Source: Armatimonadota bacterium
GTDB taxonomy: Bacteria; Armatimonadota; UBA5829; DTLH01
DNA length: 64,000 bases
Assembly: GCA_038207085.1 (NCBI GenBank)
Contig: JBBRAE010000005.1
Location: forward strand, 20,181-84,180
Direction: 5' to 3'
Positions 25,728 through 62,572 of this stretch are shown here, piece by piece. Both the position numbers and the translations under genes were made by a program. Under the pieces are notes generated by a model, which worked only from the letters and a program-made list of their open reading frames with translations, made no database searches and was not told the origin of the DNA. Each line of letters starts with the position of its first letter. Position 1 is the first letter of the stretch.

Positions 25728-28118
25728 TTGTTTTTTAAAGGACTAAGCATTCAAATGATAGATAGAGCCGATTCCGTTGATTTTCAACTAAAACTGTCCG
25801 AGCCGACCGTCGCCGAGTTCGCCGATGGGGGAAGCACCACGTTTGTCCCAGCCAAATTCGTGCCGGAGCGCGCTAACTTCGACACCGTGCGCCTTGAAGG
25901 CGCTTGGCAGGTCGCCTACTGGCCGTTTGCCGTTCCTGAAGCTGAGATTGTGGGCAAAGTCGGTGGAAACGTCTCGTGGAGCGAAGTCGCGCAGCCGGGC
26001 AAGGTGTTCTACTATGACCCGAATACGTCCCCTGACAAGATCCCGGACTGGGACAGGGTCTCGCTTGCGCACATCGACCCCGAAGATGGCGCGATTATCA
26101 AGCGAAACGTTACCGTACCGGGCAACTGGGCGGGCAAAAAAGCCTTTTTGAGGTTCGAGGGGATTTACCCCGCGGGTGTCGTCTATTTTGACGGTATAAA
26201 GGTCGGCGAACAGTGGAGCGGGCTTACCCCAATCGAGTTCGATGTGACCGAGCTTGCCACGCCGGGCGTCCACACGGTCGCGATCAGACTCTACCGCAAG
26301 CACGAGTCTGTAAAGCTCGACATGCCCCGCCACGCCCTTGAGTTCACGGGCCTCTGCCGCGCGGCGTTTCTGCACGCGGTCGAACCGGTGCATGTCTCAG
26401 AGATGAGGCTCGCGCCCGAGCTTGCCGATGACTACAAAACAGGGCACGTGACGGGTGAAGTCACCGTCAGAAACTCATCAGGCAAGAGCACCGAAGCGAC
26501 TGTAGCCGTGCAGATCGTCGACGCAAAGACCAATGTGATCGTCGAAGTGCCCTACAGCGTGTCGCTTGGAGCAGGCGAAGAGAAAACGATCGAGATCGAC
26601 GTCCCGGCGGGCGAAGTGAACACCTGGAACGCCGAGAAGCCCTACCTCTATGCCGTCCGCCTCCGAGTGATCGCGCCGGGCCAGGAGTCGCAGTGCCTGA
26701 AAGAGACGATCGGCTTTAGAAAGTTTGAGATGAAGGATCAGCGCCCGCTTCTTAACGGCAACCCCGTCAAGTTCCGTGGTGTCAACCACCTCACCTTCCA
26801 CCCCGAGGGCGGGATGTACACCCCCGAGCCGTGGCTTAGGCAGTGCCTGACGATGATGAAGCGCGCGAACGTAAACGCGATCCGCACGCACTTCTTCGGC
26901 CCGCGTGAGCTCACGGACCTCTGCGACGAGCTTGGAATCTACCTGTTGCAGGAGCTTCCTATTGACTGGGGCCACCCGTATTTCCATGAGTCGGTCCACC
27001 TCGGGCCCGTGCTTCACAGGATGGAAGCCTGCGTCCGCCGCGATAGAAACCACCCCTGTGTTATGGTGTGGAGCATCGGCAACGAGAACCTGCCGAAGAC
27101 CGAGGAGATCCACGACGTTTTCTTCCAGCACCTCGCACTTGCAAACGAGATCGTGAAGAAGCTGGACCCGACTCGCCCTACGATGTTCCCACCTCCCGGG
27201 CCAGCAAACAAGATCATGGGCATCTTCGAGACGCGCATCGGCGATATCGCGGACATCCATTACAGCTTCAAGCTGATCCGAGAGTTCAACGAGACCAACG
27301 TGCTCAGCAACCCGCGCACCTGGGAGCCGACTTTTGAGACGCACACCCGCGAGGAGCTTCACAAACGAGGCTGGAGCGGCGTCTGGTTCTCAAGTGAGTA
27401 TGGCATCGCCAACAAGCAGCCCGACCTTAACGGCGCGGCCTACCTGAACCTGATCGCCGACCTCGACTTTGACCCGCTCTCAGGCAAGAACGCCCAGCAG
27501 ACGTTTGTGGAGCGAATGCACTCCGAGTGGGGCCTGATGCACGACGACCCAACATGCCTTGGCGGCGCATATTTCTGCTGGATCGCGGCAGGCGCGGGCG
27601 ACCAGTGGGGATGGGTCCGCTGGGGAGAGGACGCTGACTGGGGAATCCTCACCGGCGACCTGATGCCCAAACCCTCGTTCTGGGCGCTGCGAGAGCTGTT
27701 CTGCCCCGTGCGCTTCCCCGACCATGTCGTCTGGCAGCCGGGAAGCAAGGAAGTGAAGATTTCGATCCGAAACGATTACAACGGGCTCGACTTCTCAGAT
27801 CTCACGTTCCGGCTGATGAGAACGGCCCCGGCATGGGGAAGCATGTGCCGCATCTTTGAGGACATCCCTGTCTCCTGCCCGCCCGGTGAGACAGTAACCG
27901 TGACGCTCCCGATGGAGAACACCGCTGGCCTCGACGAAGGTGCCACGTCGATCTGTCGGTTTATAGTCCTTGAGCCTAGCGGCTTCCGAACGATCATGGC
28001 CGACGTTTTGGTGATCTCTGAAGAAAACGTCGACAAGCGCAAGTCGGGAACGAACGGCCACAACGCCGCCCGCCCGAATATCCCAATGCCCCTTGGCCCG
28101 GACGCGGTGCTGGACTAG
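25728..28118 (+). CDS. Glycoside hydrolase family 2 (beta-galactosidase/beta-mannosidase-like)
   Basis: Sugar-binding domain, Ig-like domain and TIM barrel with RDRNHPCVMVWSIGNEN (GH2 acid/base region). The TTG at 25728 or the ATG at 25755 (MIDRADS) are both possible starts. Confidence 0.8.
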   Translation: MFFKGLSIQMIDRADSVDFQLKLSEPTVAEFADGGSTTFVPAKFVPERANFDTVRLEGAWQVAYWPFAVPEAEIVGKVGGNVSWSEVAQPGKVFYYDPNTSPDKIPDWDRVSLAHIDPEDGAIIKRNVTVPGNWAGKKAFLRFEGIYPAGVVYFDGIKVGEQWSGLTPIEFDVTELATPGVHTVAIRLYRKHESVKLDMPRHALEFTGLCRAAFLHAVEPVHVSEMRLAPELADDYKTGHVTGEVTVRNSSGKSTEATVAVQIVDAKTNVIVEVPYSVSLGAGEEKTIEIDVPAGEVNTWNAEKPYLYAVRLRVIAPGQESQCLKETIGFRKFEMKDQRPLLNGNPVKFRGVNHLTFHPEGGMYTPEPWLRQCLTMMKRANVNAIRTHFFGPRELTDLCDELGIYLLQELPIDWGHPYFHESVHLGPVLHRMEACVRRDRNHPCVMVWSIGNENLPKTEEIHDVFFQHLALANEIVKKLDPTRPTMFPPPGPANKIMGIFETRIGDIADIHYSFKLIREFNETNVLSNPRTWEPTFETHTREELHKRGWSGVWFSSEYGIANKQPDLNGAAYLNLIADLDFDPLSGKNAQQTFVERMHSEWGLMHDDPTCLGGAYFCWIAAGAGDQWGWVRWGEDADWGILTGDLMPKPSFWALRELFCPVRFPDHVVWQPGSKEVKISIRNDYNGLDFSDLTFRLMRTAPAWGSMCRIFEDIPVSCPPGETVTVTLPMENTAGLDEGATSICRFIVLEPSGFRTIMADVLVISEENVDKRKSGTNGHNAARPNIPMPLGPDAVLD

Positions 28119-42328: not shown

Positions 42329-42933
42329 TGGTCTATCGGGAGTATCCCGGCGATCACCTTGAACGGGACCAGCGCCGAGGCCGCAACGACCTCTTTGGAC
42401 GGCGCGCCCGAAACAATCGTCTCAGATAGCACGATCTGCATCCTGTAGTTGCCCGGCCGCAGATCACTTGACGGCTGGAGCCTGAGCGGAGCGCCGACGA
42501 ACCCTCCGCGGCTGATGCTCACCCAAAAACTCTGCATATCGACCTTGGAGTCGGTCTCTCCAGAATCAAGCATCTCTGCGACGAGTTTGCCACCCTGATT
42601 GAACACCCGCACTCTCCCAGGGCGCTCCACCGAGTCGACAAAAAACGGGTTGAAGACTCTCCGAGGCTGCCAGGCGCACCTGATCACGCACTGCGCCGCA
42701 AACCCATCGCCCGCCCGGTACTCGGTCTTATCGAGTGTGAACTCGACCGAAAGCCCTTCATAGTCCGAGGCCTCAGCGGGGCTGATCTTGGCAGAAGGCG
42801 AAACTGGAGACTGTTTATCAGCCTTTGGCACAGGGATCCTGAGCTTGGGCTGATCCTCAGGGGACGCGAGCGCGACGCCGCCAACCAAAACCGCGGCGAG
42901 CACTCCCACAACTATCGATAAAGCTGGTTTCAT
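42325..42933 (-). CDS. Secreted hypothetical protein
   Basis: Signal peptide MKPALSIVVGVLAAVLVGGVALASP. 202 aa. Confidence 0.55.
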   Translation of the reverse strand: MKPALSIVVGVLAAVLVGGVALASPEDQPKLRIPVPKADKQSPVSPSAKISPAEASDYEGLSVEFTLDKTEYRAGDGFAAQCVIRCAWQPRRVFNPFFVDSVERPGRVRVFNQGGKLVAEMLDSGETDSKVDMQSFWVSISRGGFVGAPLRLQPSSDLRPGNYRMQIVLSETIVSGAPSKEVVAASALVPFKVIAGILPIDH

Positions 42934-43081
42934 AAGCCGATTTCCCTTCGAGCAAGTCGCTCTGATGAGTCAGTATATCACGTTTGCCTCTCCCCCTGGA
43001 ACATTTACGAGTCCGAACCAGTCAAGCAAATACGCTCGCCAGGCACAAGACAATTACCTGCGCGCAGAGAGGGGTAGTACA

Positions 43082-44563
43082 ATGAACCTGAACCGCCTGT
43101 CTCTAATCCTCGCGACGGTCCTCGCTTTAGCCACCATCGCTCTATCGGCTCCGGCACCAGTCGCACAAATCGTCGGCCACTGGGGAGGGGCGTGTGACAA
43201 AACAGCCGTCTCAGAAGGATTCGCCTGCGTCAGCCGCGGCCTCGACCTTGTCACGCTCGATGTCTCCGACCCGACCCACCCAAAGGAGCTGGGGGAGACT
43301 GTGCTTCCCGCTCCCCCAGCGTCTATGAAGATCCGGGATCGCTATCTTTATGCAACCCTCGGGGAAGCCGGGATGCTGGTCATCGACATTCACAAGCCGG
43401 AAAAGCCGAGAATAGTCGCAAAGCTTGACACCCCCGGCAACGCGACCCAGTTCGACTTCTGCGGGCGATACCTCTATGTAGCCGACGGAAAAGATGGTCT
43501 GCAGATCATCGGGATAACAAACCCGCGCAAGCCGGTGCTGATCGTTGCGGCAGACTTGGGTCTTGTCGAACCAGTAGTAGGCATAGCCGTATCGGGAAAC
43601 ACTGCGTGCGTCACAAGCACTTCCGAATTTGTGGTGCTCGATACGTCAGACCCGGCCCACCCCAAAATAGCGAGTAAAATTAGCGATATAGACTATTATT
43701 GCCCCAGATTTGGCCCCGTAACGGTTTCCGGCACATGCGCCTATACCTTTGACGGCGCGGAAATGCGCTTCGTCGACATTTCGGACCCGACCAGCCCAAT
43801 ACTGGAAGATGACTATCTTACTCTTGACACATATGGCAGCAGGGCCGACTTCGCGGTGTCCGAAAACCGTGCATATATTGTTAGTTACCAAGCCTGGCCG
43901 CCAGTGTTTCGGGATCAGGGGCTGAACATCTTGGACATATCGGATCATTCCAACGTCAAACGCATCTACAGGACACCTGTCAGTGCAAAAGGGGTTGCTG
44001 TCGATGGTGGTTTGGTGTATATGTGTGGCACCACAGGTCTGTCTATCCTTGACCCGGGTGCGCTGCAACCACCACTTGCAGCAAACAATGGATATCTTAA
44101 TGATTCCGTGCAAGATATGGCGGTTCAGGGACAGTATGCGTACCTCGCAGTTGAACCCAATGTGCTTAAGGTAGTCGATATCTCGGACATGGCAGCTCCG
44201 GTTCTCAAGGGAGAAGCGCCCACCTCGTCCAAGCCCCAAGGCATAGCGGTCTCAGGAAGCTACGCCTGCGTCAGCACAAGCGAAAAATTGCAGGTCTTTG
44301 ACGTTTCAGTTCCCACCGCCCCAGTTCTGAAGGGAGAGGTAAGCTGCCCGCCTGGTCCTGTGGCCATCTGGACACACTACGCATGTCTCTATTCGAGCAA
44401 CAGGTTCTTTGTCATCGACCTATCGGACCCGGTGCACCCCGTTGTTACCGGCCAAACTATGCTATCACTTGGATCCTCAAAGACCAGACCCAAGGTCATC
44501 GCATCCGGAGGCTACGCGTATATAAGCAACTACACCTACGGGGTTGCCATAGTCGATATTTGA
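43082..44563 (+). CDS. LVIVD-repeat beta-propeller surface protein, N-terminal segment (ends at in-frame TGA 44561-44563)
   Basis: Start at MNLNRLSLILATVLALATIALSAPAP (signal peptide). At least 10 repeats of the ..G.A..V.V.G.YAYVA...GL.IIDISDP..P type. Confidence 0.75.
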   Translation: MNLNRLSLILATVLALATIALSAPAPVAQIVGHWGGACDKTAVSEGFACVSRGLDLVTLDVSDPTHPKELGETVLPAPPASMKIRDRYLYATLGEAGMLVIDIHKPEKPRIVAKLDTPGNATQFDFCGRYLYVADGKDGLQIIGITNPRKPVLIVAADLGLVEPVVGIAVSGNTACVTSTSEFVVLDTSDPAHPKIASKISDIDYYCPRFGPVTVSGTCAYTFDGAEMRFVDISDPTSPILEDDYLTLDTYGSRADFAVSENRAYIVSYQAWPPVFRDQGLNILDISDHSNVKRIYRTPVSAKGVAVDGGLVYMCGTTGLSILDPGALQPPLAANNGYLNDSVQDMAVQGQYAYLAVEPNVLKVVDISDMAAPVLKGEAPTSSKPQGIAVSGSYACVSTSEKLQVFDVSVPTAPVLKGEVSCPPGPVAIWTHYACLYSSNRFFVIDLSDPVHPVVTGQTMLSLGSSKTRPKVIASGGYAYISNYTYGVAIVDI

Positions 44564-44638
44564 AAACCATCTGCTCCTGTCCAAGTTGGCGGATACCCGT
44601 GCAACACGCTAACGAGCTTTGAGATCAAAGGCAATACT

Positions 44639-46579
44639 TTGTTCGCTGGCACTGTCCAGAACTGGATGGAGATCGTGGACATTTCCAATCCCGCCACACC
44701 CGTAAGAATAAGAATTGACCCGCGAACACTGAAGTCCGGAATACGTGGACTATCATCCTACGGGTCCTTCCTCGGCGTCTTAGGAAATGACGATAACCTC
44801 TATCTATTTGACGCGGGGCTTATCGACGAGCAACCCGCGATGTGGTATCGTGAAGCGGTATACAGCATTCCGGCTCGCACTGGTAGCCCTCAATTTAGCA
44901 GTCCATTGCCCTCATTCACGCTGACGTCTGCCGGAGCGTGCATTGGCGTCGCCGTCCCACAACTGACCCCTTACGGCGACCCAAGCCAAGCCGCCCAAGG
45001 GCTGCATACGATCAGCATACCCAACGTCGATGCGAAGCTCAAGATCGGCGAAGCAATACTTGGGGCAGCCATCACAGATGTCGAAGCCAGCGGACAGCAG
45101 GTATTTGCGATCGGCCTCGGTGGAATTCTGGTTTCACTGGACACCTCCGACCCGACACAGCCCAGGTTGCAGGGCATCACAATTACCGCCGACAACAATA
45201 TCCAGTTCCTGCGCGACCAATACCTGACACTCGGGAACAGCTGGGGATGGGAGACTTACGACGTTTCGCTCCCTGCAAAGCCCACAAAAGTCGGCGCAAA
45301 CACCTCTATAAAGGGACCCAAGTCAACCATCTGTGGGAGCTTTGCCTACGCGATCGACGGCTCATCAGCGATGCAGGTCGTCAGCATCTCAGATCCTGCG
45401 CCTATGAAGGTCGTCGCCGCGGTGAACCTGAATGGGCGGATCGATGGCATCACATCGTCAGATCACTATATTTATGTAGGCCTTTCCGGCGTGGCTGGCA
45501 CGTCTGGTGGGGTACTCGCAGTGCTCAACGCAACCGATCCACTGAATCCAGTCAAGGTCGGCGAGATCACTTGGGCAAATAACAACTACGTGTACGAACT
45601 TCGCACCCAGGGGCAGTATCTATACGCGAAGATGAGCAACTCACTCAATATAGTCGACGTGTCAGTCCCAACAAGCCCCAAAGTCGTAGGAAGTCTGGTC
45701 ATTAATCTGCCCGGAGATTATCGACCAGTCGGCGATCGCCTCTACTTCACAACTGGCGCGAGCGTCGGTGTCGTAGATATCTCAGACCCCACCAACCCAC
45801 GGCTTGTTCAGACAATCCCAATGCCGATGCGCCCGGAAGACCGCGTGCCCATATTGCCTATGAGCGTATCCGGCGAGAATGTATTTGTCGCTGCAGGCAC
45901 ATCGGGCGTGTTCATATTCGGTCCGACACCCACGCCTGAGCTCGCCTACACCGGCCAACTCTTCGTAAGCGTCGGCGGGATAGACCTCTCGGCAACTCCT
46001 GTGGGCAAGAGCCCAACCCCGAACCTCGACCTCAAGTTCAAAGCGCAGGGCGTCTCGGGAGGGCTCTACCTCACCAACACAGTCGTGACAAACGTGATTG
46101 GATGCGCCTCCGTCAGGGCTGTCTGGCCCGCAGGCGTCTACGAGGTGAGCGTCACCGATGCAGGCGGCAGGCCCTACTCCAAACCCACCGCCGTAGCGAT
46201 CTACAACCCCTCCAAGAAGGGCGACGCAGTTGCCGGAACGATTGTCGCAGGCGCGGGGCGGCAGGTCTCCCTCGGCATGCTCTGTGAGGCCGGTCCAGCA
46301 CCCGGCTCGATGCTCCTGGTCGATCCAAACTCCGGGGCCAGAGTCGTCTCAAGCAGCCTGCGGAGGACGAAGTTCGTCGAGCAGAACGCGGTGTACTCCG
46401 GCATCTGCAGCTTCCAGGCAGGTAGCGGCCGAAGTGTGTCCGCCTGCGTCGAGCTTATAGTCGGCTCTAAAGGAAACAACTCAGCGGCGAGCGTCCGGGT
46501 CAAGAGGTCACAGGCGAGCCAGGACGCGCTCTACGAGGCCTCAGGCCCTTTGAAAAACGGCGGGATCAGACTGCAGTAG
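44639..46579 (+). CDS. LVIVD-repeat beta-propeller surface protein, C-terminal segment (same frame as 43082..44563; the repeats continue; Ig-like C-terminus)
   Basis: (44639-42965) is divisible by 3. The codons between the TGA and 44639 continue the repeat (KPSAPVQVGGYPCNTLTSFEIKGNTLFAGTVQNWMEIVDISNPATP). No signal peptide or RBS for an independent start. Confidence 0.7.
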   Translation: MFAGTVQNWMEIVDISNPATPVRIRIDPRTLKSGIRGLSSYGSFLGVLGNDDNLYLFDAGLIDEQPAMWYREAVYSIPARTGSPQFSSPLPSFTLTSAGACIGVAVPQLTPYGDPSQAAQGLHTISIPNVDAKLKIGEAILGAAITDVEASGQQVFAIGLGGILVSLDTSDPTQPRLQGITITADNNIQFLRDQYLTLGNSWGWETYDVSLPAKPTKVGANTSIKGPKSTICGSFAYAIDGSSAMQVVSISDPAPMKVVAAVNLNGRIDGITSSDHYIYVGLSGVAGTSGGVLAVLNATDPLNPVKVGEITWANNNYVYELRTQGQYLYAKMSNSLNIVDVSVPTSPKVVGSLVINLPGDYRPVGDRLYFTTGASVGVVDISDPTNPRLVQTIPMPMRPEDRVPILPMSVSGENVFVAAGTSGVFIFGPTPTPELAYTGQLFVSVGGIDLSATPVGKSPTPNLDLKFKAQGVSGGLYLTNTVVTNVIGCASVRAVWPAGVYEVSVTDAGGRPYSKPTAVAIYNPSKKGDAVAGTIVAGAGRQVSLGMLCEAGPAPGSMLLVDPNSGARVVSSSLRRTKFVEQNAVYSGICSFQAGSGRSVSACVELIVGSKGNNSAASVRVKRSQASQDALYEASGPLKNGGIRLQ

Positions 46580-46636
46580 AAAGAGACACGTTGCCCGCTC
46601 TCTTGGGGGCGGGCAACGTTGACAAACCATCACGTT

Positions 46637-46987
46637 CTATCCCTGATCCGTTTGATGAACCAGTAGTACAAGCCTGGAAAAAGCACCCAGCCGAGCAAGC
46701 GCAGCCTTGCTCGAGTTGTAGACCGGAGCGTACGCCGAGGGCAGGAACCCGACGAGGCTTGATTCGTTGATCACCGTCCCCCACCCCTGCCGCTCCATCA
46801 CCCCGAGCGCGAGCTTCACCCCCTCGGCCGTCGCAAAGAAATTGAGGTCAAAATACGCACGGACGTCCTCCATAGAGGTCTCGCTAAACGGCCCAACAAA
46901 CCCCGCGCCCGCATCGTTCACAAACACGTCGGTCGGCACGACAAGCGCCTTGGCCCCAAGCTTCTCAATCTCGTCCTTAAGCTCATT
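46637..46987 (-). pseudogene. Short-chain dehydrogenase/reductase (SDR) C-terminal fragment; the N-terminal Rossmann half is missing at the family-C repeat boundary
   Basis: Manual extension of the track ORF reads *NELKDEIEKLGAKALVVPTDVFVNDAGAG...YNSSKAAL (SDR motifs NNAG and YxxxK). A TAG stop at 46988-46990 is followed immediately by the repeat at 46993. No TGxxxGxG region is found beyond it. Confidence 0.6.
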
Positions 46988-46992
46988 CTACG

Positions 46993-47149
46993 TTGGCCCG
47001 GATTTGAAATCCGGGGCCTGTTGGCAAACAAGGGATCTGTGATCCCGTTCTTTCGACCGTGCCCAATCAACCGGCATAACAGATGCCTATTCGGCACAGA
47101 CGTCCCGGATTGCAAATCCGGACGAACGATAGGTGCAAATCCGGACGAA
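46993..47149 (-). repeat. Family-C MITE-like repeat, copy 2 (inverted; terminal 17-nt partial duplication)
   Basis: The reverse complement matches 29833-29975. tgcaaatccggacgaac is duplicated at the end. Confidence 0.7.
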
Positions 47150-47285
47150 CAAGATGGAAATCTATCTCTCGACAAGAGGCACTGCCTATCGACCTCCACT
47201 CACCTCTTAATTTTGACTTTTGCACTTTGCATTTTTCATTTTGCATTTCCCCCTCACTCTGGCACGCAAATTGCATTATAAATAG

Positions 47286-48842
47286 ATGAAAGAGTCGTTC
47301 ATCATCATGACGTTACCGCTCTACCGAATCATACTGGCCGCCATATCGATTTTATTCGCAGCAGGGGTCCCTTGCGGCGCTGTGCGCTATTACGTCGACG
47401 CGGGCTCGACTGCTGTCGTGCGCGACGGATCGTCCTGGGCAAAGGCGTTCAAGAAGATTGGTGACGCCGTCGCGGTCGCAAAGTTCGGCTCAGAGATCTG
47501 GGTCAAGGCCGGGGTCTATCAGGAGCCGCCGCTTGTTCTGAACTCCTATTTGTGGCTCTACGGCGGATTTATCGGCTTTGAGACCAAACAAGAGTACCGT
47601 ATCCCGGGCGCGTTCCCGAGCATAATCGATGTAGACCGCCAGGGCAGCGTCATCACCGTCGCAAGAGATAAGCGCTGCACCATCGACGGCTTTACGATTC
47701 GAAACGGTTTCGCAATGTATGGAGGCGGGCTGAACTGCCAGACCAACTCCGTTGTCAACATGCGAAACTGCCGAATCGAAGGCTGTGAGGCGACTTACGC
47801 CGGAGGCGGAGCGTACTTTGGCACCTATGCGCCGATGGACTTTATCGGCGGACTGACCGACTGCGTGGTCATCGGCAACACCTCAGCGCAGGGCGGCGGG
47901 GTGGTGATCGAGTATCACTGCGCGGCGGTCTTGACGCGCTGTCTAATCATCCGAAACCACGCGACATCAAACGGCGGCGGGGTCTACTGTCCGTTTCACT
48001 GCGATGGCCGGATGTACTACTGCACCGTCGCTTACAACTCGGCCGGTGAGACGTCCGGCGGCGCTTACGTGCACTACGGTGGCAACGTCGCTTTCACGAA
48101 CAGTATCTTTGCCTTCAACTCTGCGCCCACTTCAGGCGGGCTCGGTGGAGGCGGCGGGACCAACTCGCTGCAGTACAGCTACTGCAACCTTTTTGGCAAT
48201 CAGGGCGGCGACTGGGGTGGAAACATCCTTGACCCGTCGAGGTTTCTCGGAAACTACTCGGCGGACCCGAGGTTCATCGCCCCGGAGCGCGATGAGTTTC
48301 ATCTATGGTCAAATTCACCCTGCACAAGCGCGGGGTGCTTCGCAGTTGAGAGCCCTTACCGGATCGAGCGCATCGGAGTCGCAAAGAGCCTGCCCACAGG
48401 CACGAGTGTGCGGCTTCGGGGCAAGATCGTCTCCGGTGTGCGTGATGGAATCACCTACATTCAGGAGCACGACCGGGCGGCGGCGATCGCTGTCACAGGG
48501 CTTTCGGGTTACACATCGGGTCAGGTGCTTCGGGACATCACCGGCGTGATCAGCGGCGACGTACGAACCCTTGCCGCAGGCACGACGACAACCCAGGCGG
48601 GGTTCAGCTACCCGTTCAAACCGCTTGGGACGAATGTGTCGTCCATCGCGACGCTCACGGGCATGATGTCGCGGACCTGGGGCCGAGTCACAGGCCTTAC
48701 CGTGGAGGGATTTGTGATAAATGACGGGCGCACAGAGCTTCAGGTGATAGCAAGCGGCGCGTCGGTCGGCGATTTTGTTGTGGTAACGGGCGTGTATGCG
48801 CTCGATGGAAAGTTTGCGGCTGTTTCAGTCGTAAGAAAGTGA
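47286..48842 (+). CDS. Secreted right-handed parallel beta-helix protein with Pmp-like GGA / FxxN repeats
   Basis: Signal/TM MTLPLYRIILAAISILFAAGVPCGA. Repeats ..GGGAYF.., ..NGGGVYC.., ..GGAYVHYGGNVAFTNSIFAFNSA.. resemble polymorphic-membrane-protein / PbH1 repeats. Confidence 0.65.
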   Translation: MKESFIIMTLPLYRIILAAISILFAAGVPCGAVRYYVDAGSTAVVRDGSSWAKAFKKIGDAVAVAKFGSEIWVKAGVYQEPPLVLNSYLWLYGGFIGFETKQEYRIPGAFPSIIDVDRQGSVITVARDKRCTIDGFTIRNGFAMYGGGLNCQTNSVVNMRNCRIEGCEATYAGGGAYFGTYAPMDFIGGLTDCVVIGNTSAQGGGVVIEYHCAAVLTRCLIIRNHATSNGGGVYCPFHCDGRMYYCTVAYNSAGETSGGAYVHYGGNVAFTNSIFAFNSAPTSGGLGGGGGTNSLQYSYCNLFGNQGGDWGGNILDPSRFLGNYSADPRFIAPERDEFHLWSNSPCTSAGCFAVESPYRIERIGVAKSLPTGTSVRLRGKIVSGVRDGITYIQEHDRAAAIAVTGLSGYTSGQVLRDITGVISGDVRTLAAGTTTTQAGFSYPFKPLGTNVSSIATLTGMMSRTWGRVTGLTVEGFVINDGRTELQVIASGASVGDFVVVTGVYALDGKFAAVSVVRK

Positions 48843-56054: not shown

Positions 56055-58838
56055 CTAGAACCGTCTTTTCTTTCTCTTCGGCTTGACCTTGGTCTTGTCG
56101 TCGTCTACGTCAACCCCACCGCCGCCGTTGCTCGGCGCGGGCGCGGAGACCTTGACTTCGGATGCGGTGACAAGCGCCTTGTCCTCAGCCACTCGTCGCT
56201 GTGCTGTTGTGCCACCCTTGCGGCGGTTGGCGATATTCTCCCAAACCACCAGAAGCGGTGTCGCGTTAAAGATCGACGAGTAGGTTCCACTGATGATACC
56301 CACGAGCAAGGCGATATACAGATGCTTGATCGAGAGCCCGCCGCCACCAAACACGGTCAGCGCCACAATCGTCAGAAGAACGGTCACGGACGTGTTTATC
56401 GACCGGGTGAAGGTCTGCAGGATGCTCTTGTTCGCGAGCGTCTCGAAGTCCTCACCACGCACTCTGTGCTTCAGGTTCTCACGGATCCGGTCAAAGACGA
56501 CGATGGTGTCGTGCGTCGAGAAACCGATCATTGTAAGGACCGCAGTCACAAACAGCGTGTCGATCTCCCAGCCCCACAAGTAACCTGCCGCCGCAAATAG
56601 TCCTGTGATAACAAGCACGTCGTGCAGCGTAGCCGCTATTGCGCAGATACCATACTTCAGTCCATCAGCAAATCCGCCGACAGCAAACCTGATCGTAAGA
56701 TAAAGCACGATTGCAATCGCTGCAAGGATAACCGCGAAGATTGCCTTCTGGGTAAGCTCTTTGCTGATGGTCGCGCCAACGCTCGACGAAGAGACCTTGG
56801 CCATTCCATACTTGGCCTCCAAGGCGTCTACGATCTTGTCTCTATCAACGTCGATGCTCTTCAGCTGATCGGTGCGGATGAACGCAGTGATCGGCTTGCC
56901 CGCACCCTGAGAGATCTGAGCGGTATTTTTGACGCCCAGACCCTCGATCACGTCGGAGACTTCGCCTGCCCGAATATCCCTGGGAGTGTTGAGCTCCACA
57001 TTGAAATCGGTAAGCGAATTGCCGGTAAGCTTGGTCGAAAGCGCCTTCTTGATCGAATCAATCTGCGCCTGATCGTTCTTGCCAAGAGCCGCGGTGATCG
57101 TTGCCGTGTCACCTGCGACCTCGACCTTGTTTGTGATCTCTGAGCTGTTCGGGTCGGCGGACGTCACGAGATTCTCAAGCTGAGCCTGAGGAATGTCGAT
57201 CGGCTTTGCGAACTTGGCTTCCATCCGAGCGCTCTCGAAGGTCATCTCAATCGTCGTTCCCGGCTTGAACTCGATACCGGGCTTCAGTCCGTGGCCGGTC
57301 TTCACAAAGTTCAGCCCGTAGAAGATAAGTCCCGGAATGATTACAATCGCGGACAGCGCGAAGTATGCATTTCTGCGGCCAACAACGTTCAGCCCGCTTC
57401 TTGTGAACCAGGAAGCTCCGAGCCCGAACATATTCGGGTTCTGCGCCCAGGGCAGACTGACCACAAGGTGCAGGAACGATCTGGTCACGAGAATCGCCGT
57501 GAACATACTGACAAGAACACCGATCACGAGTGTAAAGGCGAAGCTCTGCACTGTGCCGGTCCCGATCTTCATCAGGATGAGCGCGGTGATGATCGTGCAC
57601 ATATTGGAGTCGAAGATCGCTGTGAACGCCCTTGAGAACCCGGCGTCGATCGCCGCATGAAGCGTCTTGCCACTCCGAAGCTCTTCTTTAAGTCGCTCAA
57701 ATATAAGGACGTTGGCGTCGACCGCCATACCGATCGACAGAACAAACGCCGCAAGACCCGCAAGCGTCATCGTAACGCCGAGCGCAGTAAACGCAGCCCA
57801 CGTGAGCAGCGCATAGATCACAAGCGCGACGTCAGCCAAAAGTCCCGGCAGCCGGTAGACAACCAGCATAAAGATCATAACCAGCGCGAAGCCGATCAGA
57901 CCGGCAAGCTTTGCCTGTTTTACGGTGTCTTTGCCGAGCGTAGCCTCAACGTCGTCAAGCTGGACGATTGTGAGCTGCACGGGAAGTGCGCCACTGTTCA
58001 GTAGCTGAGCCTTCTGCTGAGCGTCCTCAAGGTTTGAGAACCCGGTGATCTGACCCTTGCCGTCGGGGATAACCGACTGGACTCTCGGCGCGGTAACAAT
58101 TGTGTTACCAATGAGAATAGCCGTGGCCTCACCGATATGGCGCTGTGTGAACTCGCGGAAGTTCTCTGCGCCCTTGTTATTCAGCTCAAAGCGAATAACG
58201 GCCTGTGAACCGTTCTCGAAGTCGCCCACGGCGTTCGGTTTGAGGTCGTCGCCCGTGACGATCGGGGACTGCCCGTCGGGGTTAGTCTTGCTTTTCGCAT
58301 CGATAACCTCGTCGAGAATCTTCTGCATTCCCTCAGGGGTATTGCTTTTGACGATCTCCTTGGAGACGGTGTTCTCGAAGGCATAGACATCCATTCCGGT
58401 CTTCTCATCTGCCTGCGGCTCAAGCATGAGCCACGGAGCGGAAGGGTTGCGGTCGGAGCGGACATCCTTCAGGTAGTAGATCTCGAGCTTGGCTGTGTCC
58501 TTGATCTGATCAAGCGCCTGCTGTTTGTTCTTCAGGCCAGGAAGCTCAACCAGAACGCGGTCATCGCCCTGCCTCGAAATCTGAGGCTCGGCAACGCCAA
58601 AGTTACCCTCAACTCTGGTCCTAATGGTGCGGATGACGGCGTTCATCTTATCGGCCTTGGCTTCAGGCGAAAGAATCTGCCCCTTGGCATCCTTCAGGTC
58701 ATCGGGGTTAGCTTGCAGTACAACGCGCATACCGCCCGCCAAGTCGAGCCCTTCGCGCATCTTCACCTTAGCGACGACAACCGAGGCACCGATGATAAGG
58801 GCAATGGTGAGCAGTAAATACTTATGGTATTTCGACAC
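56055..58838 (-). CDS. secDF: Protein translocase SecD-SecF fusion protein
   Basis: SecD periplasmic domain plus 6 TM, then the SecF domain. Start chosen at the GTG (VSKYHKYLLLTIALIIGASVVV) because GGGAGGA lies 7 nt upstream. The ATG at 58934 is the alternative. Confidence 0.85.
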   Translation of the reverse strand: MSKYHKYLLLTIALIIGASVVVAKVKMREGLDLAGGMRVVLQANPDDLKDAKGQILSPEAKADKMNAVIRTIRTRVEGNFGVAEPQISRQGDDRVLVELPGLKNKQQALDQIKDTAKLEIYYLKDVRSDRNPSAPWLMLEPQADEKTGMDVYAFENTVSKEIVKSNTPEGMQKILDEVIDAKSKTNPDGQSPIVTGDDLKPNAVGDFENGSQAVIRFELNNKGAENFREFTQRHIGEATAILIGNTIVTAPRVQSVIPDGKGQITGFSNLEDAQQKAQLLNSGALPVQLTIVQLDDVEATLGKDTVKQAKLAGLIGFALVMIFMLVVYRLPGLLADVALVIYALLTWAAFTALGVTMTLAGLAAFVLSIGMAVDANVLIFERLKEELRSGKTLHAAIDAGFSRAFTAIFDSNMCTIITALILMKIGTGTVQSFAFTLVIGVLVSMFTAILVTRSFLHLVVSLPWAQNPNMFGLGASWFTRSGLNVVGRRNAYFALSAIVIIPGLIFYGLNFVKTGHGLKPGIEFKPGTTIEMTFESARMEAKFAKPIDIPQAQLENLVTSADPNSSEITNKVEVAGDTATITAALGKNDQAQIDSIKKALSTKLTGNSLTDFNVELNTPRDIRAGEVSDVIEGLGVKNTAQISQGAGKPITAFIRTDQLKSIDVDRDKIVDALEAKYGMAKVSSSSVGATISKELTQKAIFAVILAAIAIVLYLTIRFAVGGFADGLKYGICAIAATLHDVLVITGLFAAAGYLWGWEIDTLFVTAVLTMIGFSTHDTIVVFDRIRENLKHRVRGEDFETLANKSILQTFTRSINTSVTVLLTIVALTVFGGGGLSIKHLYIALLVGIISGTYSSIFNATPLLVVWENIANRRKGGTTAQRRVAEDKALVTASEVKVSAPAPSNGGGGVDVDDDKTKVKPKRKKRRF

Positions 58839-59302
58839 TCTGGAATCCTCCCAAACGTATGATGGCTGGCACTCCCCATAGGTTCCCAGCCCACGACGTG
58901 AGCAAATACCTACAGATGAATATATACAGGTCATTATATTCGGTTAAGATCACCATGTCAACATTCGCTCACAGTTATAGAGCGATATTTGAACCGGCTA
59001 TCTTTCCGACAATCCAGCTTCTACCAATCTATACGCAACCTCAGCCACAACTGTTACAGGAAACTATGGAGTGCGGCGAGCAATCGCCGCTTTGTTCTCG
59101 GCCAACAGCAAGGTGCGCAAGCGCCATATTATCACCAGCTGGGAGATTTGTGAAAGCGGCTCTCGCAAGCCGCACTCCAAATCAAGATTGACGACTGCCG
59201 ACAGTGCCTATATGCTCCCACACAAATCCCAAAATCGATTCATTTGCTCATCAGTTGCCTTCTATGGTAGAATTCAGTGAGAATAATCGCCCTATATAAA
59301 GG

Positions 59303-60610: not shown

Positions 60611-62572
60611 ATGGAAGACAAAGTCTTTTATATCACAACGCCGATCTACTACGTAAACGACGTTCCCCACATTGGGAACGCCTACACGACGATGATCTCG
60701 GACATCGTCGCCCGCTTCCAGAGGCTAGAGCGGCGCGAAGTGCTCTTTGTCACCGGCACCGATGAAAACGCGACCAAAGTAGCCGAAGCGGCAGCCGCTG
60801 AAGGGCTCGGCGCGCAGGAGTTCGTCGACCGGATCGCCCCCAAGTTCAAAGACGTCTGGAGCGATCTTGAGATCACCTACAGCGACTTTATCCGAACGAC
60901 AGAACCCCGGCACATCGCAATCGTCCAGGAAGCGTTCAAAAGGCTCCTTGCCACAGGCGATATATACAAAGGAACCTACGAAGGCTGGTACTGCACTCCC
61001 GACGAGACGTTTTTCCGCGAATCAGAAGTGACCGACGGCCTCTGCCCCAATCCCGAATGCCGAAGACCCGTGCAATGGGTGACTGAAGAGAACTACTACT
61101 TCAAGCTCAGCGCCTACCAGGACAGGCTGCTCGACTGGATCGAGACCCATCCAGAGTTCCTGCAGCCGGAGTTCAGGAAAAACGAGGTCGTCAGCTTCAT
61201 CAAGCAGGGCCTCCACGATGTATCGATCAGCCGCGACAACAAGGGATGGGGCATCCCCGTCCCCGGCGACGAGAGCAAGGTCATCTACGTCTGGTTCGAT
61301 GCGCTCCTGAATTACCTCACCGCCGCCGGATGGCTTTCCGACGAGGAACGCTTTGCGCGCACCTGGCCCGCCGATCTGCAGCTTATGGGCAAGGACATAT
61401 TCGTCCGCTTCCACTGCACCTTCTGGCCCGCGATGCTGATGGGCCTCGGCCTGCCGCTTCCCAAAACGCTCTTTGGGCACGGTTTCTGGTCCATTGAAGG
61501 GCAGAAGATTTCAAAATCCAAGGGCAACGCTATCTCACCCGCCAAGCTCGCCTCGGACCTCTCCGAGCAGTCGGGCGCAAAGCAGCAGGTTTCGGTGGAT
61601 GCTATTCGCTACTTTGTCGCGCGCGAAGTGCCGTTTGGAGTCGACGCCGACTTCTCACAGAAGTCGCTGGTCGGACGCTTCAACGCCGACCTCGCAAACG
61701 ACCTCGGAAACCTCTTGAACCGCACGCTTTCGATGCTGAACAACTACTTCGGCGGCATGGTCCCCGAGCCAAAGGATGTCGCAGGCGAGATGATGAACCT
61801 CGTGCGCACTTCAGCCGACGAGGCCGCCCAGTCGTTTGCCGCGCTTGAGTTCACCAAGGGGCTTGAAGCGATCTGGCGAGCGATCAGCGCGGGGAACCGT
61901 TACATCGACGAGCAAGCACCGTGGAAAGCCATGAAAGAAGGCCGACAGGACGACGCGGCGACGACGCTCTACACCGTCCTTGAGCTCGCGCGCGCGGTGG
62001 CGGTTATGGTATCGCCGGTTATGCCCTCGGCCTCCCGAGAGATTTGGGCGCAGCTTGGAAACCCGAGCGACTTCGACGCGCTCACATGGGAGGACGCGAC
62101 CCAGTGGGGACTCCTTCCCCCGGGCACAAAAACCACCGGCCCGCAGCCGATTTTTCCTAGAATTGACGACAAACAGAGACAGAAAGAGGCAAAGAAAGTG
62201 GAACAGCCAGCACAGCCGCAGGCAGTCGAAGAGACGACGCCTGTCACACCAAAGATCAGCTACGACGACTTCGCGAAGCTTGAGATCATAGTCGCCGAGA
62301 TAAAGACCGCGGAGCGCGTCGAGGGAGCTGACAAGCTCCTGCGCCTTATGGTCGACGACGGCCAGGGCGAACGCCAGGTGGTCGCGGGAATCGCGCTTTG
62401 GTATGAGCCGGAGACGCTTGTCGGCAAAAAAGTCGCGCTGCTTGCGAACCTGAAACCCGCCAAGATCCGCGGGGTGGAGTCAAACGGCATGCTGCTCGCG
62501 GCCGACATCGAGGGCCGCGCGGTTCTTCTTTCCCCCGAGGCGGACGTTCCCGCCGGATCAAAAGTGAGGTAA
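60611..62572 (+). CDS. metG: Methionine--tRNA ligase with C-terminal tRNA-binding (EMAP/MetG-C) domain
   Basis: ..PIYYVNDVPHIGNAYTT.. (HIGH). KISKS motif (KISKSKGN). C-terminal ..KLEIIVAEIKTAERVEGADKLLRL... domain. Confidence 0.9.
   Translation: MEDKVFYITTPIYYVNDVPHIGNAYTTMISDIVARFQRLERREVLFVTGTDENATKVAEAAAAEGLGAQEFVDRIAPKFKDVWSDLEITYSDFIRTTEPRHIAIVQEAFKRLLATGDIYKGTYEGWYCTPDETFFRESEVTDGLCPNPECRRPVQWVTEENYYFKLSAYQDRLLDWIETHPEFLQPEFRKNEVVSFIKQGLHDVSISRDNKGWGIPVPGDESKVIYVWFDALLNYLTAAGWLSDEERFARTWPADLQLMGKDIFVRFHCTFWPAMLMGLGLPLPKTLFGHGFWSIEGQKISKSKGNAISPAKLASDLSEQSGAKQQVSVDAIRYFVAREVPFGVDADFSQKSLVGRFNADLANDLGNLLNRTLSMLNNYFGGMVPEPKDVAGEMMNLVRTSADEAAQSFAALEFTKGLEAIWRAISAGNRYIDEQAPWKAMKEGRQDDAATTLYTVLELARAVAVMVSPVMPSASREIWAQLGNPSDFDALTWEDATQWGLLPPGTKTTGPQPIFPRIDDKQRQKEAKKVEQPAQPQAVEETTPVTPKISYDDFAKLEIIVAEIKTAERVEGADKLLRLMVDDGQGERQVVAGIALWYEPETLVGKKVALLANLKPAKIRGVESNGMLLAADIEGRAVLLSPEADVPAGSKVR

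Follow-up and report, generated by a model that had tools for sequence, protein, structure and literature searches.

Does a lone in-frame TGA within a large gene of an uncultured Armatimonadota bacterium mark a broken gene, the border between two genes, a recoding signal or an error in the sequence? The question arises on the forward strand of a 64,000-nucleotide stretch of contig JBBRAE010000005.1 (assembly GCA_038207085.1, positions 20,181 to 84,180), hereafter the window, whose coordinates are used throughout. Two adjacent open reading frames (ORFs) in the window encode repeats of the LVIVD family (PF08309), and we consider it probable, at roughly 0.78, that they are pieces of one large gene for a secreted LVIVD triple-propeller protein carrying an ordinary point nonsense allele. 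Among the options raised by the original prediction, made from the DNA letters alone, a nonsense mutation in one gene is well supported: a distant homologue, P0005, is encoded by a single ORF with Ser at the corresponding position, a TCA-to-TGA change would account for the stop, and the stop lies inside a propeller.

One reading frame and its single stop

The ORF list and its translation place ORFs 42965..44563 and 44639..46579 (+) in one frame. Continuous translation from 42965 to 46579 yields 1204 sense codons and one internal stop, the TGA at 44561-44563, confirming the sole interruption that had been proposed. The stop sits in the context GTT GCC ATA GTC GAT ATT TGA AAA CCA TCT GCT CCT, which reads as ...GVAIVDI-(stop)-KPSAP... 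and verifies that it takes the Ser position of an LVIVD repeat. The size of ~1170 aa given at first needs slight revision, the joined read-through product measuring 1165 aa when counted from ATG 43082. The codons following the stop do continue the repeat in frame, as described; the supposed next Met at 44639, however, is a TTG, read as Leu in frame, and the ATG nearest 3' of the stop lies at 44666, 34 codons on.

A six-frame scan revealed that the TGA at 44561 joins stop-free segments of 569 and 671 codons, the sole pair in the 64-kb window with more than 500 codons on both sides of a single stop. Four further same-frame junctions emerged from the scan, all with shorter segments. Two of them, TAAs at 49705-49703 and 37622-37620, part adjacent genes with different Pfam domains, and the other two, at 56598 and 57141, are antisense to a SecDF-type gene (56055..58934). 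Both sides of the TGA score well above the Pfam gathering cut-off for LVIVD (20.2 bits), with tandem repeats: 199.5 bits over six stretches for 43082-44560 and 59.4 bits for 44564-46576. The features of the interrupted gene are as follows, with borders 3' of the stop transferred from a structural model of P0005 where indicated.

42965..43081 (+), in-frame extension of 39 codons 5' of ATG 43082, beginning at the ORF's first ATG; start called by Logan
43082..44560 (+), 5' part, 493 codons, corresponding to the 493-aa protein P0122 of the NCBI annotation
~residues 1-25 (+), signal peptide within the 5' part
43166..44068 (+), ~residues 29-329, complete 7-bladed LVIVD propeller 1, followed by a linker and the first three to four blades of propeller 2
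44561..44563 (+), in-frame TGA, codon 494, at the Ser position of the DxS-P-P repeat motif (GAT ATT TGA AAA CCA)
44564..46579 (+), 3' part, 671 sense codons and TAG, colinear with P0005 to the final residues
44639..44668 (+), candidate restarts, TTG 44639 and ATG 44666, the latter chosen as start by both NCBI and Logan (637 aa)
to ~45001 (+), rest of propeller 2, border from the P0005 model
~45044..45922 (+), propeller 3, border from the P0005 model
45938..46576 (+), rare C-terminal domain of 213 aa, border from the P0005 model

Translation almost certainly begins at ATG 43082, judging from the signal peptide, the upstream GAGAGGGG, the NCBI call and the alignment to residue 1 of P0005, all of which favour it over the ORF start at 42965 used originally; the intervening extension is probably not translated. 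The element GAGAGGGG, located 5' of ATG 43082, is purine-rich and resembles a Shine-Dalgarno (SD) sequence, and MNLNRLSLILATVLALATIALSAPAP, directly after this ATG, is modelled as a helix spanning residues 3-21. The G+C content at third codon positions is 0.60 and 0.67 in the two halves of the LVIVD gene, compared with 0.76-0.77 in the genes for methionyl-tRNA synthetase (MetRS) and a glycoside hydrolase of family 2 (GH2) (60611..62569 and 25728..28115). The lower value is compatible with weak expression, relaxed selection or a foreign origin.

The repeats themselves indicate what the TGA probably replaced. Wherever the motif is clear in the other repeats of the gene, the position equivalent to the stop is Ser, and the Ser codons scored there are all TCN (10/10), comprising five TCA, four TCG and one TCC. 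Since these codons are uniformly TCN and TCA is the commonest (5/10), a single C-to-G change, TCA to TGA, would explain the stop, and TCA is the likely ancestral codon at 44561. The stop thus lies one substitution away from the Ser codon expected at this position, as had been proposed.

Homologues, fold and the probable lesion

Homology searches with the joined protein returned many LVIVD homologues at 22-35% identity, of which P0005 is the only full-length relative found. This 1142-aa protein comes from a Logan assembly made from a different sample; it is encoded as a single ORF and is colinear with the joined protein over 98% of its length. The N-termini match, with a signal peptide and a '...WGG..C...AVS' start, and ~210 C-terminal residues are common to both proteins (YTG.LF...WPAGVYE...YNP..KG...SDALY.ASGP). 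At the column of the stop P0005 carries Ser, encoded by TCT. For the comparison that the original prediction had called for, this only orthologue-like protein gives one chain with Ser at the column. All 33 aligned homologues (33/33) read through this column; the residues listed there are Ser (21), Thr (4), Ala (2), Lys (2), Gln (1) and Val (1), and Cys, Trp and Gly do not occur. Its neighbours are the invariant-like motif residues D (-2) and P (+2, +5).

A close orthologue of the joined 1165-aa protein was not recovered by the homology search, the best match being ~30% identical, and a query with the 671 aa following the stop retrieved the window's own protein P0123, which served as positive control, and nothing else above 33% identity. 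No closer orthologue appeared among 5.8 billion proteins, an exact-cluster look-up gave only the two fragments P0122 and P0123, and a protein-pattern scan of GTDB genomes had no match. DNA patterns with N at the mutated base likewise had no match in JGI metagenomes or GTDB genomes. The word-indexed search is incomplete, the joined query having missed the window's own P0122 and P0123 despite their presence, and its negatives on repeat-rich queries call for caution.

The C-terminal domain is rare: among 1.84 billion representatives, a full HMMER scan detected it in 13 proteins at E <= 0.001, with P0005 alone among them also having LVIVD repeats, and the 213-aa domain of the window protein has no Pfam match. 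It also ends P0252, a Kelch-repeat protein with a weak, just sub-threshold match to a caspase domain, and P0247, an unannotated protein of 827 aa.

Structure prediction places the stop in the middle of a fold. The AlphaFold2 model of P0005 (mean pLDDT 74; residues 30-920 mostly >80) contains 84 strands grouped in fours, forming 21 blades with breaks at 321-328 and 630-636, which we read as three propellers of seven blades each, with a C-terminal domain after them that is modelled poorly and with low confidence. Its best Foldseek matches in the PDB are the multi-propeller proteins LRP4, LRP2, DDB1, SF3b130 and Trm734. On P0005 the stop corresponds to residue 503, where the final strand of blade 11 (blade 4 of propeller 2) ends. 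The window's 493-aa fragment was modelled with a pLDDT of 89.2, consisting of the signal helix (3-21), 28 strands (seven four-stranded blades) over 29-324, a low-confidence disordered linker at 331-336 and 15 strands (~3.75 blades) over 343-492. In these models, the stop would interrupt propeller 2 mid-fold, after ~4/7 blades, and not at a domain border.

Together, these features suggest the following course. The original gene would have encoded a secreted protein of ~1165 aa composed of a signal peptide, three 7-bladed LVIVD beta-propellers and the rare C-terminal domain. A C-to-G change would have converted the TCA Ser codon 494, inside the second propeller, into TGA, with translation from ATG 43082 now predicted to stop at that codon. 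The product would be a secreted fragment retaining propeller 1 whole and propeller 2 in part, whereas propeller 3 and the C-terminal domain would be lost. The remaining 671 codons would be reached only through background misreading of UGA or through a restart at TTG 44639 or ATG 44666, and a restart product would have no signal peptide. Loss of function is likely; the truncated product, or a low-level read-through product, may retain some function.

The lesion may well be recent. The 671 codons after the stop contain no further stop in frame, compared with 27 and 14 stops in the two alternative forward frames, and ~3.3% of all single-base changes in this region would create one. Under a model of point changes only, at equal rates, the probability that the frame stays free of new stops drops to 0.5 once 0.011 substitutions per site have accumulated and to 0.05 at 0.046. 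Because nothing else in the gene is broken, the allele would be young, or some selection still acts on the downstream part; the data do not separate the two.

Several points weigh against an ordinary nonsense allele. No close orthologue was found (best 30% identity), leaving one distant full-length homologue and the repeat consensus to define the ancestral state. The intact downstream ORF is also compatible with continued selection on the downstream part. Finally, both assemblies in which the TGA occurs, described below, may share the same or related read sets, leaving some chance of a systematic error or of a minority variant fixed in the consensus.

Competing explanations for the stop

It is unlikely that the TGA is an artefact, introduced by a sequencing or assembly error or taken over into the consensus from a minority variant, with TCA as the true codon of the organism. 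The consensus of a metagenome-assembled genome (MAG) can fix minority alleles, and the population is microdiverse, with two single-nucleotide polymorphisms (SNPs), both synonymous, separating the window from Logan sequences across 7.8 kb. The G is nevertheless also present in the Logan assembly of SRR19962012, produced by a different pipeline, where the 4301-bp contig L001 corresponds to window 42718..47018 and contains the identical TGA. Contig L001 differs from the window at one position, 44548 (C/A; GCC to GCA, synonymous Ala), 13 nt 5' of the TGA, and the adjacent Logan contig (window 47152..50671) has one synonymous difference, at 47417. Given these SNPs, neither assembly is a copy of the other, and since 44548 and the mutated base 44562 are only 14 nt apart, both haplotypes, C and A, appear to carry the TGA. 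Neither a homopolymer nor a repeat lies at this site. A plain assembly error, one of the options first listed, is thus made unlikely by the second, non-identical assembly, a comparison at the level of consensus sequences. The Logan contigs break at window 47019..47151.

We regard as very unlikely a natural split into a 493-aa secreted propeller protein and a separate second protein of 637-646 aa, the arrangement of the public annotation. In its favour, two genes are called here by both NCBI and Logan, the ORF after the stop is open throughout, and a weak AAGG lies 8-11 nt upstream of TTG 44639. No SD-like motif precedes ATG 44666, and given just the weak AAGG at the TTG, the earlier statement that the downstream part has no ribosome-binding site of its own is close to correct. 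The accompanying statement on signal peptides stands: by reading of the sequence, neither TTG 44639 nor ATG 44666 is followed by a hydrophobic signal sequence (LFAGTVQNWMEIVDISNPATPVRIRIDPR...), which is at odds with an independent product belonging to an extracytoplasmic protein. A scan for promoter-like or terminator-like sites near 44561 found none, leaving the weak AAGG as the only candidate signal for independent expression. The break also falls within a propeller, after ~4/7 blades, rather than at a domain border, and the 25-34 codons from the stop to the candidate starts keep the repeat in frame, with a restart at either one beginning inside a blade. Moreover, P0005, the sole protein sharing this architecture, is a single chain.

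Among stop codons, UGA is the most readily misread. In E. coli reporters, it is misread by Trp-tRNA at ~2-4% (PMC10570021), and suppressor tRNAs occur in ~0.3% of standard-code bacterial genomes (PMC13092985). With these rates, a trace of full-length product would be possible as background and not as a programmed event. Programmed recoding of the UGA into a full-length protein, by selenocysteine insertion, regulated read-through or a suppressor tRNA, is consistent with this leakiness and with the intact 3' ORF, yet we consider it highly improbable. A selenocysteine insertion sequence (SECIS)-like element, which the original prediction had suggested looking for, is not apparent around the stop: the 86 nt from 44555 fold with a minimum free energy of -15.1 kcal/mol, against -15.18 +/- 2.92 kcal/mol for shuffled sequences (z = 0.03). 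Rfam gave nothing at the gathering threshold across the whole 64-kb window and, at E <= 10 around the stop, only a chance miRNA match on the other strand (E = 7). A tRNA scan of the window, which is part of the genome, found no gene, and the sel-gene families had no Pfam match among the 20 neighbouring ORFs scanned.

The stop position is moreover a structural Ser of the repeat and not a redox site. The column contains no Cys, Trp or Gly among the listed homologue residues, which argues against both selenocysteine and the meanings of UGA in genetic codes 4 and 25. Selenoprotein genes would be expected to have a SECIS stem-loop 3' of the UGA and Cys homologues at the column, and neither was found; for programmed read-through, the stop is not conserved in P0005, which has a sense codon, and no stimulatory structure accompanies it. 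The read-through option of the original prediction consequently finds no support. A related reading, in which UGA 44561 is decoded at a meaningful rate through leaky read-through or through a suppressor or variant tRNA-Trp encoded elsewhere in the genome, deserves equally little credence. Were it correct, the gene would yield an abundant short secreted single-propeller product alongside a rarer full-length triple-propeller protein with the C-terminal domain, and the intact 671-codon ORF would be a trace of continued selection.

The standard code applies in the window: a code with UGA reassigned (tables 4, 25) was rejected, as the other 41 ORFs of the window end in TAA (16), TAG (15) or TGA (10) and no other gene is interrupted by TGA. 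Phase variation was likewise rejected, GATATTTGAAAACC at the site containing no tract longer than 4 nt and 44450-44700 no significant repeats, which leaves the earlier 'phase-off' idea without basis.

Genomic setting and known systems

The interrupted gene lies among ordinary genes for housekeeping and sugar metabolism, including galK and galT homologues and those for an aldo-keto reductase, RelA/SpoT, RecJ, SecDF and MetRS. The MetRS of the window has no match above 75% identity in the database, and all phylum-named matches are Armatimonadota/Armatimonadetes MAGs. Adjoining the interrupted gene, a 100-aa ORF at 46637..46939 (-), extending to ~47010, is a fragment of a short-chain dehydrogenase/reductase (SDR) that covers only positions 79-159 of 195 of the adh_short profile. 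Its Rossmann N-terminus is missing, with stops before it, an internal deletion seems to follow '...ALVVPTDV', and the C-terminal third is absent, its place being occupied by the 3' end of the LVIVD gene. The fragment looks like a second, older gene remnant. The gene beyond it, 47286..48842 (+), encodes a 518-aa protein with an N-terminal hydrophobic segment, Gly/Asn-rich repeats and no Pfam match, which is identical in the Logan assembly, the SNP at 47417 being synonymous. The break between the Logan contigs is intergenic, between the SDR remnant and this gene.

If the nonsense allele is accepted, the two public 'hypothetical proteins' (493 and 637 aa) would be pieces of one interrupted gene, which annotation should mark as a disrupted gene or pseudogene instead of listing two protein families. 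The locus would add one more large surface-exposed repeat protein lost or truncated in a natural population, and it gives no evidence of recoding in Armatimonadota.

Three known systems invite comparison. Bacterial selenoprotein genes share only the in-frame UGA with the window gene, which differs from them in having no SECIS-like hairpin, no Cys homologues at the column and no redox context. LVIVD cell-surface beta-propeller proteins, first described in Methanosarcina acetivorans (PMC2447325), share the 42-residue repeats with a hydrophobic strand and a D-x-S-x-P-x-x-P motif, the N-terminal signal peptide, and the arrangement of multiple propellers followed by a C-terminal non-repeat domain. 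That domain is rare and unannotated here, unlike the common partners T9SS, FlgD-Ig, SLH and PKD. The third is a unitary pseudogene, or truncated allele, made by a point nonsense mutation in a bacterial surface-protein gene, with which the locus shares a lone stop in a frame that is otherwise intact, a single change away from the sense codon expected there, an uninterrupted homologue and a gene split by annotation pipelines into two 'hypothetical proteins'. Nothing notable sets it apart from such cases beyond its uncultured Armatimonadota lineage and the lack of a close orthologue for dating.

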